A stretch of 53,250 nucleotides of DNA, taken from Clostridiales bacterium. Lineage in GTDB: Bacteria; Bacillota; Clostridia; Oscillospirales; CAG-272. The notes beneath the pieces are model-generated. The model saw nothing but the letters and a program-made list of their open reading frames with translations. It made no database searches and was not told the DNA's origin. The stretch is from the NCBI GenBank assembly GCA_024693345.1, contig JAILLB010000049.1, forward strand, positions 1 to 53,250. The letters run 5' to 3'. This document shows positions 1 to 42,211 of this stretch, in pieces; position 1 is the first letter of the stretch, and each line of letters opens with the position of its first letter. A program made the translations under genes and the position numbers.

Positions 1-113
1 AGAAATTCTTCTATTTCGGCAGTCAAAATCTTTTTTCTGTACTTTACTGACCATACCATATGATAGTTTATGTTGCACACAGATGTGCGGTAATGTATTA
101 GATTATTCTTCAT
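1..113 (-). CDS. tnpA: IS200/IS605 family Y1 (HUH) transposase TnpA, 5' part only (runs off the window)
   Basis: Manual translation from ATG at 113: MKNNLIHYRTSVCNINYHMVWSVKYRKKILTAEIEEF, the typical TnpA N-terminus (YHxVWxxKYRKK). Not in the ORF track. Confidence 0.9.
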   Translation of the reverse strand, partial: MKNNLIHYRTSVCNINYHMVWSVKYRKKILTAEIEEF

Positions 114-34394: not shown

Positions 34395-34471
34395 TGGCTG
34401 GGACAGCCGGACTTGAACCGACGAAATGCAAGAGTCAAAGTCTTGTGCCTTACCAACTTGGCTATGTCCCA
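34395..34471 (-). tRNA. tRNA-Gln(TTG)
   Basis: TGGGACATAGCCAAGTTGGTAAGGCACAAGACTTTGACTCTTGCATTTCGTCGGTTCAAGTCCGGCTGTCCCAGCCA; anticodon TTG. Confidence 0.97.
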
Positions 34472-39062: not shown

Positions 39063-39233
39063 ATGTTAACATGGATGATTAATAATTTGGGAACAATCAT
39101 TGTTTCCTTGGTATTGATTGCCGTTGTGGTTTTAATTGTCTTCTATCTCAAAAAAGAGAAGAAGAGCGGTAAATCATCATGCGGCGGAAACTGCGCCCAT
39201 TGTTCCATGTGCAAATCGTGTCACCAGAAATGA
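39063..39233 (+). CDS. FeoB-associated Cys-rich membrane protein, 56 aa
   Basis: Manual translation MLTWMINNLGTIIVSLVLIAVVVLIVFYLKKEKKSGKSSCGGNCAHCSMCKSCHQK; below the ORF track cutoff. Confidence 0.88.
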   Translation: MLTWMINNLGTIIVSLVLIAVVVLIVFYLKKEKKSGKSSCGGNCAHCSMCKSCHQK

Positions 39234-39250
39234 AAAAATAAGTAAGGCAT

Positions 39251-39297
39251 AAAAAATACGGACTTCATTGAAATAGTCAATGCAGTCCGTATTTTTT
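39251..39297. terminator. Bidirectional terminator
   Basis: AAAAAATACGGACT...AGTCCGTATTTTTT. Confidence 0.85.
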
Positions 39298-39308
39298 GTA
39301 GTTGATAA

Positions 39309-39440
39309 GTGAACTACCCACCACCTGTTTACACTGAGGTGGGTGCTTCATAGATGATTTGCATCATCCAATCTTTTTTACTCTTCGATGCAGGTATCCC
39401 CACAAGCATAAGGAGTCTAGCCCCGGTGTCCCGACCGGTT
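39309..39440 (-). ncRNA. Putative TnpB omega-RNA (reRNA) scaffold
   Basis: AACCGGTCGGGACACCGGGGCTAG... through the right-end hairpin to GTAGTTCAC, resembling IS605 tnpB 3' ends; recognised by eye only. Confidence 0.6.
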
Positions 39441-39693
39441 ATTTTTTTCTTATTTACGTGATCTGTGTCTGAATTCAGATCTACGCTTTGCTCTCATTTC
39501 CGACTGTTCTTCTACAATTTCATAGCTTTCGCCAATAAACTCGCTTCATTACTACCGATAATTATACAACTTCGTATTTTTAATCTTAATATCTTGAGTT
39601 GTATTTCTTGTGTGTTTCGTAATCCTTTTTGCACTCTTTCTCACAATTCATCTCGCCTCCTATAGAGGAGGGAGACTTCTTGCTGAGTGCTTG
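39309..39693 (-). mobile_element. Non-autonomous IS200/IS605 derivative (PATE-like), 385 bp
   Basis: Minus strand: TTTAA, then CAAGCACTCAGCAAG-AAGT and a left-end hairpin (39674-39652); right end GAAG-CACCCACCT..AGGTGGTGGGTAGTTCAC; no tnpA or tnpB ORF. Confidence 0.85.
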
Positions 39694-40389
39694 TTAAATT
39701 ATCGAAGTTTGTTCAAGCCTTGAGACACTGAAAGAGAATCCTGCGGTTTCCGTTACAGGAACTGAGAACAATTTGGTTGCTGCTTCAGAATTAGCACCGG
39801 CTTTATCCAGAATAGATTTCATTATGTTGATCTTACTGTCTTTGTCAGTGACAATAATTACCAATTCCTTGTCATCGGCAATTGTCATTCCAAAGAATTT
39901 TCCTTTATCTTCAGGCTTTGTTCCTTTTGCATGGACAATTGTGCCTCCGCCGGCACCACCTGCTCTGGCAGCGTCCATTACCATATTTGAATAACCGGAT
40001 TCGGTTATACACATAATCATCTCATAATTAGAAGTATTCATATTTGTGTCCTCCTTGTCATTAAGGTTAATGTCTGTAAAGGTTTTGATGGTTGATGAGC
40101 TGATTGTGCTCACCGGTATCGTACATGCGATGCCTTTGTCCGGAAGATACATCATCATTTCCTTGTTCATCTTTTTCAGAACTGATGATGCTGTTTCAGA
40201 AGGAAGAATTGTCAAATAAAGCACTTTTTCCGTCTGAACCAGTCCGAACGTGTCAAGGATTTCTTTTCTGGTGGAACCGATGCATGGATGACTGATTAAA
40301 TAGGATATTCCGCTTTCAGAAAAGAATGACGTAAAATCACCGCTGTCGGACTTTTTGGTTATGCATAACAACAATTGTAAGTCTTTCAC
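39694..40389 (-). CDS. Tandem PII-like (GlnB-fold) protein
   Basis: VMDAARAGGAGGGTIVHAKGT, FSVPV; degenerate N-terminal copy; GTG start. Confidence 0.8.
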   Translation of the reverse strand: MKDLQLLLCITKKSDSGDFTSFFSESGISYLISHPCIGSTRKEILDTFGLVQTEKVLYLTILPSETASSVLKKMNKEMMMYLPDKGIACTIPVSTISSSTIKTFTDINLNDKEDTNMNTSNYEMIMCITESGYSNMVMDAARAGGAGGGTIVHAKGTKPEDKGKFFGMTIADDKELVIIVTDKDSKINIMKSILDKAGANSEAATKLFSVPVTETAGFSFSVSRLEQTSII

Positions 40390-40399
40390 GTTTCACCTC

Positions 40400-41950
40400 T
40401 TACATTACAAGCGTTTCGTTCTCAACCTCTTCAGTTTTTTCGGGTTGAACTGTTTCTTCGGCAACGTGTGCCTTTGATGATTTGATTTTGAATATAAGAC
40501 CGAGAATCTGGATTGTCAGAAGTGGTGCTCCGGCAACCAGGGCAATCAGTCCGAATGCATCTGTTATTACGCTATTTTCAAGTGATTCACAGGCACCTGA
40601 TGCAAATGGAAGAAGGAATGCGGCTGTCATGGGGCCCGATGCAACACCTCCTGAGTCAAATGCAATTGAAGTGAATATTTTTGGGGAAATGAATGTCAAC
40701 ACAAGCGCTATTACGTAAATCGGAACAATGAACCATAACAGAGAAATTCCTGTGAAAACTCGTATCATAGCCATTCCAACAGCTGCTGAAACACCAAGTT
40801 CAAGGGAGAGAAGAATATGCTTTCTTGTAATTGATCCCGATGTTATATTTTCCACCTGTACAGATAAAACGTGCACTGCCGGTTCAGCTCTTACTATGAA
40901 GAAACCTGTCAGCATTCCAATCGGAACAATAATCCAACTATATGGCAGATTACCAAGTTGTGTTCCTATGTAATAACCAACGGGCATAAATCCCGCATTT
41001 GCTCCGGTTAAGAATAATACAAGTCCAAGATACGTATAAATTGCTCCTGCCACTATCTTGTTTAATGCCTTTTTTTGAATTTTGCTTACAATGAACTGAT
41101 AAATGATAAAGAAAATCAGTATCGGAAGAAGGGCAATTGCGACCTCCTTAAAGTACTCCGGGAATTGTTTTAGAATAGATACTGCAAGTTCTTGTGAATT
41201 GTCAATTTTGGGCATTTCATATGGCGTATATACGGCATTTGCCTTTGTAATAATGCTTAGAATGATGACAGTAAGAATTGGCCCAATTGAACAGAGAGCA
41301 ACAAGACCGAAACTATCTTCTTCAGCTGCTTTATCCGAACGAATGGATGCCACACCTACGCCAAGTGCCATGATAAACGGAACCGTCATCGGACCGGTTG
41401 TGACGCCGCCTGCATCAAATGCTGCCGGTATAAACTCCTGTGGAGCAAATATTGCCAATATGAAAATAATCGCATATCCGGCAATAAGAATATATGAGAG
41501 TCTGATTTTGAAGACGATTCTCAGCATTGCTATTATGAGGAATAATCCGACACCGATTCCAACTGCAACTATGAGAAGTGTGCTGTTAATACTGCCATTC
41601 AGCTGTTTTGCCAGTACCTGAAGGTCAGGCTCAGATATTGTTACAAGGGTTCCTACCAAAAATGATACGAGAATAATCAGCCACAGTTTTCTCTTCTTTA
41701 CCACTGATGAGCCTACATGCTGACCCATGGGAGTCATTGAGATGTCAGCTCCAAGCGTGAAAAATCCCATCCCCAGTATGAGAAGGACCGTTCCGGTGAG
41801 ATATGCGAGCAATAGTCCGCTGTCGACAGGAACAACTATAAACGTCAAAAGCAAGACTATGACTGAAATTGGAAGTACAGAAGACAATGATTCTTTTATC
41901 TTTTCAACCAAAACTTCGCCCGTTGTCATCAACATAAGTTTTCTGACCAT
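40400..41950 (-). CDS. DUF1538 family membrane protein, two fused repeats
   Basis: SEPDLQVLA / AEPAVHVL, AFDAGGVTTGPMT / AFDSGGVASGPMT. Confidence 0.85.
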   Translation of the reverse strand: MVRKLMLMTTGEVLVEKIKESLSSVLPISVIVLLLTFIVVPVDSGLLLAYLTGTVLLILGMGFFTLGADISMTPMGQHVGSSVVKKRKLWLIILVSFLVGTLVTISEPDLQVLAKQLNGSINSTLLIVAVGIGVGLFLIIAMLRIVFKIRLSYILIAGYAIIFILAIFAPQEFIPAAFDAGGVTTGPMTVPFIMALGVGVASIRSDKAAEEDSFGLVALCSIGPILTVIILSIITKANAVYTPYEMPKIDNSQELAVSILKQFPEYFKEVAIALLPILIFFIIYQFIVSKIQKKALNKIVAGAIYTYLGLVLFLTGANAGFMPVGYYIGTQLGNLPYSWIIVPIGMLTGFFIVRAEPAVHVLSVQVENITSGSITRKHILLSLELGVSAAVGMAMIRVFTGISLLWFIVPIYVIALVLTFISPKIFTSIAFDSGGVASGPMTAAFLLPFASGACESLENSVITDAFGLIALVAGAPLLTIQILGLIFKIKSSKAHVAEETVQPEKTEEVENETLVM

Positions 41951-42211
41951 TGTCCCATCTCCAATCATTGAATGTCTATCATAATGATACCATAACAAAT
42001 GGCCAAACAAAAGTCCAAAATATACATTATCATTGCTTAAGCAGGGATACTTTTTGTGCAAATTGTCATCATAATTATCATTCCGGTTAATATTTTATAT
42101 TTTTTGAACATTGATTTTAATTGTTACGAAAATATATAATATTGGTAGACTAGGAAGAGAGGAGCGCATAAGTATTTTATGTGCTCCAATTCTATTTTCA
42201 AGGGGGATTAA

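Follow-up and report, generated by a model that had tools for sequence, protein, structure and literature searches.

A gene-less IS605-family insert that retains both ends, a candidate promoter and an omega-RNA-like scaffold in an uncultured ruminant-gut member of the Clostridia

Background

In the 53,250-nucleotide stretch of DNA analysed here (contig JAILLB010000049.1 of the Clostridiales bacterium assembly GCA_024693345.1, hereafter the window), the stop codon of a gene for a PII-like protein is separated from the terminator that follows it by an insert of 385 bp. This insert raises the questions of what kind of element it is, from what it was derived and whether it still provides a usable RNA. 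A reading made from the letters of the DNA without database searches (the sequence-only reading) had described it as an IS605-type element that lacks the genes tnpA and tnpB and keeps both ends, a candidate promoter and a scaffold resembling omega-RNA, the guide RNA of TnpB. It had further supposed that the element could be mobilised in trans and could borrow a TnpB, or a nuclease-dead TldR, encoded elsewhere.

We compared the insert with its own genome, an uncultured metagenome-assembled genome (MAG) of a ruminant-gut member of the Clostridia (assembly G000; 126 contigs, 40.7% G+C), with other genomes and with metagenome contigs. The insert is almost certainly a non-autonomous, protein-free element, that is, a PATE (palindrome-associated transposable element) or miniature inverted-repeat transposable element (MITE), which arose by deletion from an IS605-family element with tnpA and tnpB. 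As the best overall explanation, to which we assign a probability of roughly 0.7, we propose a PATE with its native promoter and an omega-RNA module that would be usable by a TnpB in trans. Elements of this sort are known from other bacteria, and the insert is a further member of them and no new kind of system. The sequence-only reading proved to be right in its essentials.

Results

Boundaries and ends of the insert

The features on which the sequence-only reading was built, namely TTTAA overlapping the stop codon, the length of 385 bp, the tetranucleotides AAGT and GAAG, and TTAAGA-17-TATAAT, are all present on the minus strand where it had placed them (Table 1). The open reading frame (ORF) of the PII-like gene ends in ...ATAATTTAA, its TAA stop codon lying inside TTTAA. 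The insert starts with CAAGCACTCAGCAAGAAGT and ends with GGGTAGTTCAC on the minus strand; its right end runs ...GAAG-hairpin-GTAGTTCAC to the last base at 39309, and unique DNA (TTATCAAC...) lies directly beyond, followed by the terminator hairpin. Because this hairpin with its U-run stands beyond the right end, the insert lies between stop codon and terminator, as had been proposed, in sense orientation within the 3' untranslated region of the PII-like gene. The longest ORFs in the insert comprise 66 codons on the plus strand and 40 on the minus strand, and no Pfam family was matched at E <= 0.01, in agreement with the reported absence of any tnpA or tnpB ORF.

Table 1. Features of the insert and its surroundings (window coordinates)
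Feature	Position	Strand	Remarks
PII-like host gene, 231-aa ORF	39694..40389	minus	stop codon TAA at 39696-39694
Target pentanucleotide TTTAA, or transposon-adjacent motif (TAM)	39694..39698	minus	last three bases are the PII-like stop codon
Protein-free IS605-family derivative (PATE/MITE), 385 bp	39309..39693	minus	boundaries common to C1/C95, C37 and C86
Left-end DNA guide candidate AAGT and imperfect hairpin	39651..39678	minus	AAGT at 39678-39675 (+16..+19), hairpin at 39675-39651
Promoter TTAAGA-17-TATAAT	39561..39589	minus	native tnpA/tnpB promoter of the parent; other copies TTGAGA
First 11 nt of tnpA, ATGAAATTGTA	39513..39523	minus	by comparison with L071
Last 20 codons and stop codon of tnpB (63 nt), GAAGAACAG...	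39450..39512	minus	agrees with the tnpB 3' end in L071
Omega-RNA-type scaffold, 132 nt	39309..39440	minus	from AACCGG (39440) to the right-end boundary; ends in TTCAC, the transposon-encoded motif (TEM)
Flank that would be read as guide, 20 nt	39289..39308	minus	last 9 nt within the terminator hairpin, in its 5' arm
Terminator hairpin	39251..39297	.	-23.7 kcal/mol, z = -8.6, U-run

A search with a 410-nt stretch against the window's own assembly gave a second 385-bp copy with 98% identity (C1:38389-38773). Because the end of this copy overlaps the start of contig C95, we regard C1/C95 as a single locus that was split by the assembler. Further relatives in the same genome are a 1706-bp element with tnpB only (C37) and a derivative of 331 bp (C86). 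In addition, C22 holds a remnant of a right end, and C93 a diverged left end that is cut off by the end of the contig. Similarity among these copies starts right after TTTAA and ends at GTTCAC (GTTCGC in C22), and the flanks are unrelated; since the copies agree exactly between these two points and diverge outside them, the boundaries of the insert are fixed, and both of its ends are indeed kept.

More copies were found at unrelated sites in the genomes G004, G006 and G016. Over four genomes, TTTAA precedes the left end at 13 of the 15 distinct junctions, the other two having ATTAA and TTTAT; with a background rate of 0.0012 per position and strand in the genome, the occurrence of TTTAA at the junctions is beyond chance. 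The right flanks of the copies all differ and none repeats TTTAA, indicating the absence of a target-site duplication. Insertion 3' of the target without duplication, together with subterminal hairpins, is the signature of the IS200/IS605 family. Each of the two subterminal hairpins has one bulged base in its 3' arm, and there are no terminal inverted repeats. The left-end hairpin, formed by 5 bp, a bulged C and then 4 bp, is present in all left-end copies together with its tetranucleotide, which reads AAGT or AATT. The right-end hairpin (about 39345-39317) has GAAG immediately 5' to it, and TTCAC (39313-39309) is the final pentanucleotide.

The tetranucleotides had been suggested to pair with the cleavage sites by the rule of IS608 from Helicobacter pylori, in which TTAC pairs with AAAG and TCAA with GAAT. 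Compared position by position, TTAA:AAGT at the left end and TCAC:GAAG at the right end follow this pattern, with A:T and C:G, respectively, at the fourth position. The sequence pattern thus fits, whereas co-variation is missing: the left guide reads either AAGT or AATT, a difference in its third position that is not accompanied by a change in the TAM, and the variant TAMs TTTAT and ATTAA occur without a matching change in the guide. As judged from these motifs, the insert is consistent with the pairing rule.

Parent element and internal deletion

The parent form is found in a congeneric genome (G006:C30, locus L071), where TTTAA is followed by a matching left end and leader and by TTGAGA-17-TATAAT. 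This locus encodes a Y1 transposase TnpA of 132 amino acids (PF01797, E = 1.6e-42) and, overlapping with it, a TnpB of 455 amino acids with the Pfam domains OrfB_IS605 and Cas12f1-like TNB. L071 and the window insert are 96% identical over the 5' 192 nt, the tnpB tail of L071 is identical to positions 196-267 of the search query, and L071 leaves its contig inside the scaffold region. The window insert equals the parent minus one deletion, which begins at codon 4 of tnpA and leaves only the last 20 codons and the stop codon of tnpB. The junction is exact, between 39513 and 39512, and at 39513 there are also loose contig ends, from RNA as well as DNA. The search with the ends therefore yielded copies in the own genome and the parent in a congeneric one.

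Because the window insert is equivalent to L071 with one deletion, the candidate promoter is the one that served tnpA and tnpB in the element itself, and this part of the sequence-only reading is borne out. Its position is the same in L071 and in the C1 copy, and the 132-nt scaffold now begins about 114 nt downstream of it. With 10 of 12 matches, it is the best sigma-70-like site in 39150-39800, an interval with three promoter-like sites compared with 1.5 +/- 1.1 in shuffled sequences.

Elements that carry tnpB and share the right end are also available. The C37 element is 79% identical to the insert over the last 206 nt, with the same value for the tnpB tail (39450-39512), and the congeneric tnpB-linked ends L020 and L021 are 97-98% identical (over 205-207 nt, and likewise over the 134-nt scaffold). 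A second complete relative with tnpA and tnpB, L085, has the same 3' architecture and scaffold.

Two more distant relatives were noted in the course of these comparisons. The left end at C93:1-175 (minus strand) represents a third, diverged type with TTTAA and AAGT and a different hairpin sequence, and carries a strong TTGACT-17-TATAAT promoter before it runs off the contig. L029 (G016:C15), from another genus, is a related element in which the tnpA frame after the left end is interrupted by an in-frame TAG, and may be a pseudogene or reflect a sequencing error.

Conserved fold of the putative guide-RNA scaffold

The 132-nt block at the right end is located directly 3' of tnpB in C37, L020, L021 and L085, and of the 63-nt tnpB tail in the window. 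Its predicted fold has four stems: P1 (CCGGU/ACCGG, about 39438-39423), a variable P2 hairpin, P3 at 39370-39351 (UGGAUGAU-GCAA-AUCAUCUA), and P4, which is the right-end hairpin. RNAalifold predicted 34 pairs from an alignment of 12 sequences, with changes to both partners in seven pairs, and an alignment of 13 sequences gave 38 pairs, with such changes in eight. In two lineages the P3 stem has a different sequence, both partners having changed in 2-3 of the 8 pairs and one partner in a further 1-2; its GCAA loop is retained in L085 and reads AUUC in the other divergent lineage. At the tip of P4, U:A is replaced by C:G with the GNRA loop retained, and P2 is a hairpin in both of the types that the window genome contains, with a difference between the two. 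Covariation thus gives moderate support to the fold, from few lineages, and the omega-RNA-like scaffold of the earlier reading can be upheld as a block common to tnpB-linked copies, with a conserved fold and compensatory changes. A long-range, pseudoknot-like pairing of GGAC with GUUC is unsupported, because it was predicted only from invariant bases.

A covariance model that we built from the 12 sequences gave the window copy 159 bits, a score that is partly due to construction. In the window genome it matched only the loci already found by BLAST, and among 151 genomes sampled from the family it matched three. A search of the whole window against Rfam 15 at the gathering score returned two tRNAs and a ribosomal protein L10 leader and no match to the scaffold; Rfam may lack a model for this clade. 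The search with covariance models was accordingly positive with our own model and negative with Rfam.

On the plus strand, the P1 stem and a T-run (39423-39438) score as terminator-like. Antisense transcripts that come in across the right end could be terminated at this site.

Deletion forms and distribution

Four internal deletion forms with both ends were recognised: the 385-bp form of the window and C1, a 331-bp form (C86) akin to the C37 type, and forms of 237 bp (L054) and 208 bp (L035). In all of them, 64 nt or more of the left end and the whole scaffold from AACCGG on are retained, and the two shortest are without the promoter. These forms, only four in number, suggest that the scaffold is needed for persistence beyond the hairpin of about 50 nt that would serve a transposase. 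Decayed remnants without the right end are present in a congeneric genome (L065, L068 and L069). Between the two 385-bp copies, the scaffold differs at 1 of 134 positions and the remaining aligned sequence at 7 of 256, a contrast that is too small for significance.

Gene-less copies are 94-99% identical between species of the genus (G004 and G006), whereas the orthologue of the flanking PII-like gene in G006 (C14) is 77% identical at the DNA level, suggesting recent horizontal spread among ruminant-gut bacteria. The family is narrow among the genomes searched, since a scan with a 25-mer of P3 gave six stretches in the records of two MAGs, one with a degenerate 34-mer taken from the right-end hairpin led to six stretches in the records of four ruminant-gut MAGs, and the covariance model likewise led to few genomes.

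Candidate partner proteins and the guide

The C37 element, which has a TTTAA target and no tnpA, encodes a TnpB of 462 amino acids with the Pfam domains OrfB_IS605 and Cas12f1-like TNB. This protein is 78% identical to the TnpB of L071 over 455 amino acids, and the scaffold of its element is 84% identical to that of the window over the aligned positions. In an alignment with the TnpB-like chain of PDB 9yyg, which at 408 aa has the length of the solved ISDra2 TnpB chains, its D, E and D residues fall on positions 191, 278 and 361; we take these positions to be the catalytic residues. On this alignment, the catalytic triad of the C37 TnpB is intact, and the protein could be an acceptor of the window scaffold.

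A pattern search with the C37 TnpB in a collection of genome contigs gave 14 stretches, none of which was confirmed as a close relative, and a protein search over 301 genomes of the order found only relatives with 33-40% identity in ten other genomes, which were too distant for an alignment of their 3' ends. Five weak matches to the TNB domain (21.7-36.4 bits) fall in open frames of 141-329 amino acids (C4:621-854, C5:135-338, C16:45706-45939, C46:26937-27137 and C47:279-488) and represent distant TnpB-family genes or fragments. The genome also has two intact-looking Y1 TnpA genes, at C97:748-1107 and C116:1015-1371, with ends unlike those of the PATE.

If the flank of the insert is read as a guide, no other match to it next to TTTAA exists in the genome at up to 2 of 12, 3 of 16 or 5 of 20 mismatches, so that the search for further targets came out negative. 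Because the guide is without a second TTTAA-flanked near-match, a homing-type guide fits and a regulatory one does not. On the same ground, and given the intact triad of the closest TnpB, that of C37, a guide RNA of the TldR type, with the nuclease-dead partner that had been considered, has no support here.

Empty site and transcription

The earlier reading expected relatives without the insert to join TTTAA directly to the flank. Two metagenome loci, L076 and L077, have a PII-like orthologue with 90% amino acid identity in the same gene order and are free of the insert. In both, the stop codon is followed by about 18 nt and then by the conserved terminator, and the site reads ATCTAA and not TTTAA; the empty site is therefore backed by synteny and spacing and is not base-exact. 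Insert-free syntenic relatives thus exist, but the exact join of TTTAA to the flank was not seen in them. The orthologue at G006:C14 was rejected as an empty site on account of its TGA stop codon and different downstream region, and L078 and L079 were rejected because they look like it.

Out of 20 runs we also used two DNA runs (X3 and X4) and two RNA runs (X15 and X17) as assembled Logan contigs, which hold no information on strands or transcript ends. An X3 contig contains the filled site with no differences over 39287-39830; no contig joining across the insert was noticed in X3 or X4, where no search aimed at the joined empty-site sequence was made. In the RNA libraries, contigs from other insertion sites cover the scaffold, with DNA carry-over being possible. 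One X15 contig of 301 nt bridges the deletion junction, so a gene-less form is present in X15, and contigs of X17 cover the scaffold and tnpB tail of full-length copies and extend into the tnpB tail and the tnpA start of the parent. These contigs are a weak indication that sibling copies are transcribed.

Discussion

Proposed course of events and its alternatives

The first part of the explanation that we favour is shown by the comparisons above: the element entered on the 3' side of a TTTAA target, which shares bases with the host stop codon, and a single internal deletion joined the native promoter and the 5' leader of the element to what is left of tnpB and to the 132-nt scaffold. Transcription from the retained promoter, readthrough from the PII-like gene, or both, would lead to an omega-RNA with the 16-20 nt past 39309 as the guide; the host terminator would end the transcript, and nine bases of a 20-nt guide would lie in the 5' arm of the terminator. 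The C37 TnpB might load this omega-RNA and cut the donor joint of TTTAA and flank once the element is excised, and recombination with a sister copy might then restore the element, in the manner of the 'cut-and-copy' retention set out in the relevant passages of PMC10055086. Movement of the element would require that a cognate TnpA is supplied. As to whether the guide RNA of the insert is still functional, we consider the chances to be even.

Several observations weigh against this explanation, and some of them would suit an inert relic, immobile and without a functional guide RNA, in which the scaffold was spared by the chance of the deletion and is too young to have decayed. Neither a cognate TnpA nor a parent-type (A-type) TnpB was found in the window assembly; the parent TnpA as a query gave only two Y1 homologues with 26-28% identity, and the idea that the element is still mobilisable in trans has to that extent no support in this genome. 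Three substitutions are private to the window copy in comparison with its siblings: TTGAGA to TTAAGA in the -35 box (39587), GGAG to GGCG in the former ribosome-binding site of tnpA (39531), ahead of its start, and, in the right-end hairpin, a C replaced by A in the outer stem (39344). They fit slow decay, and that such elements do decay is indicated by the C22 remnant in the same genome and by the relatives without a right end in the congeneric genome. Moreover, 8 of 390 aligned positions distinguish one 385-bp copy from the other, so that transposition was not very recent. The P2 hairpin of the C37-type scaffold differs from that of the window, the covariation comes from so few lineages that the effective sequence number of the covariance model is 1, and a search of 39100-39900 against Rfam at E <= 10 gave ten chance-level matches, mostly on the terminator hairpin. 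Finally, all of the RNA-library contigs stem from other insertion sites and none from the window copy. We nevertheless judge a relic to be unlikely. The whole 132-nt scaffold is kept by four independent deletion forms with both ends, including two that have lost the promoter, and copies are far more similar across species than the flanking host gene, as expected from recent spread. The smaller number of differences in the scaffold than elsewhere between the 385-bp copies points the same way without being significant, and a compatible-looking TnpB with an intact triad is encoded by C37.

Co-option by the host would give the insert a role as a 3' untranslated or small-RNA element that affects the operon of the DUF1538 and PII-like genes in its stability, termination or regulation, or as a guide for a nuclease-dead TnpB-like regulator of the TldR type. 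The sense orientation between stop codon and terminator, by which the insert is part of the host mRNA, would suit the former role, and the more distant TnpB-family frames on C4, C5, C16, C46 and C47 the latter. We consider either role highly improbable, since the same element is located at unrelated sites in this and other genomes, the insert-free loci L076 and L077 keep the same gene order, the guide has no other TTTAA-flanked match within the mismatch limits given above, and the closest TnpB retains its catalytic triad.

A broader proposal combines these elements: the PATE lineage would be a parasite of TnpB consisting of a guide RNA only, deletions that keep the scaffold would have been filtered and spread between ruminant-gut species, and the 385-bp cassette would work with a TnpB of 78% identity without a cognate transposase. 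Taken as a whole this is speculative and we hold it to be rather doubtful. If it were true, retention by TnpB homing, besides recognition by TnpA, would set the minimal size of IS605 MITEs. The parent, the exact junction, the tnpB-only form and the four gene-less forms make up a natural series for the shrinkage of an IS605 element to a non-coding core, and the dependence of PATEs on a TnpB in trans can be tested with three parts, namely the 385-bp cassette, the C37 TnpB and the parent TnpA. For annotation, the insert accounts for a gap of 385 bp between stop codon and terminator, and such gaps can hold guide-RNA genes.

Comparison with known systems

ISDra2 TnpB (8exa, 8bf8 and 8h1j) resembles the proteins studied here in its RuvC triad and zinc-ribbon/TNB domain, and the two systems also share a guide RNA that extends from the 3' end of tnpB to the right-end boundary, a guide taken from the flank and a multi-stem scaffold of about 130 nt. 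The similarity to the C37 TnpB is confined to the C-terminal half (E = 2.8e-39, residues 249-428), and the proteins have 455-462 amino acids here compared with 408 in ISDra2. The scaffold has no detectable sequence similarity to the ISDra2 omega-RNA and no Rfam model, and the TAM of ISDra2 differs from TTTAA.

Gene-less PATE-like elements are known from Geobacillus stearothermophilus, and according to the passages concerned with them in Meers et al. 2023 (PMC10055086), where this dependence is raised and not tested, omega-RNAs requiring a TnpB in trans are often encoded by PATEs. The G. stearothermophilus elements, ISGst2 and the PATEs, agree with the window element in belonging to the IS200/IS605 family, in their subterminal hairpins, and in having a TAM 5' of the left end and, where the right end stops, a TEM, and there, too, tnpB-only copies outnumber those with tnpA. 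The passages on ISGst2 (TnpB2) in PMC10055086 give TTTAT as its TAM and TTCAC as its TEM; the latter is identical to the TEM of the window element, whereas the TAM differs from the TTTAA of the window family (13 of 15 junctions). The hosts also differ, the window element being known from sequence alone in an uncultured MAG. In line with IS608, the model for the TnpA mechanism, and with the general principle given in PMC10055086, cleavage sites would be recognised through the tetranucleotide 5' of each hairpin foot.

A PATE-like sequence of 271 nt from Halanaerobium hydrogeniformans, as presented in the section of PMC7290912 on this sequence, is devoid of tnpA and consists of a left-end hairpin, the final 58 nt of tnpB and the complete, long right end. 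Its anatomy is nearly equal to that of the window element, which additionally keeps the promoter, the leader and 11 nt of tnpA and belongs to an unrelated sequence family. PMC7290912 predates the omega-RNA concept, and its section on the sequence contains no discussion of guide RNAs. A PATE with IStron ends appears in a figure legend of 10.1101/2023.11.20.567912.

Neighbouring genes and other features of the window

The protein of the PII-like gene scored 24.8 bits against the Pfam family P-II, marginally below the cut-off of 25 bits. Upstream of it lies a gene for a DUF1538 membrane protein (40400-42061; Pfam E = 2e-135), and on the other side the PII-like gene converges with a FeoB-associated gene (39063-39233). 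The terminator hairpin stands between these convergent genes and is flanked by A and U runs on both sides; because of this position and these runs it probably serves both genes.

The contig starts within a gene for a Y1 transposase (window 6-80, minus strand; PF01797 with 25 bits, first 25 residues only). A start of at least 31 nt is common to this contig and C21, and we therefore regard the gene as part of an unrelated IS200/IS605 element at an assembly break. The two tRNA genes (1428-1500 and 34398-34471) and the ribosomal protein L10 leader (2609-2744), all on the minus strand, are ordinary and unrelated to the insert.

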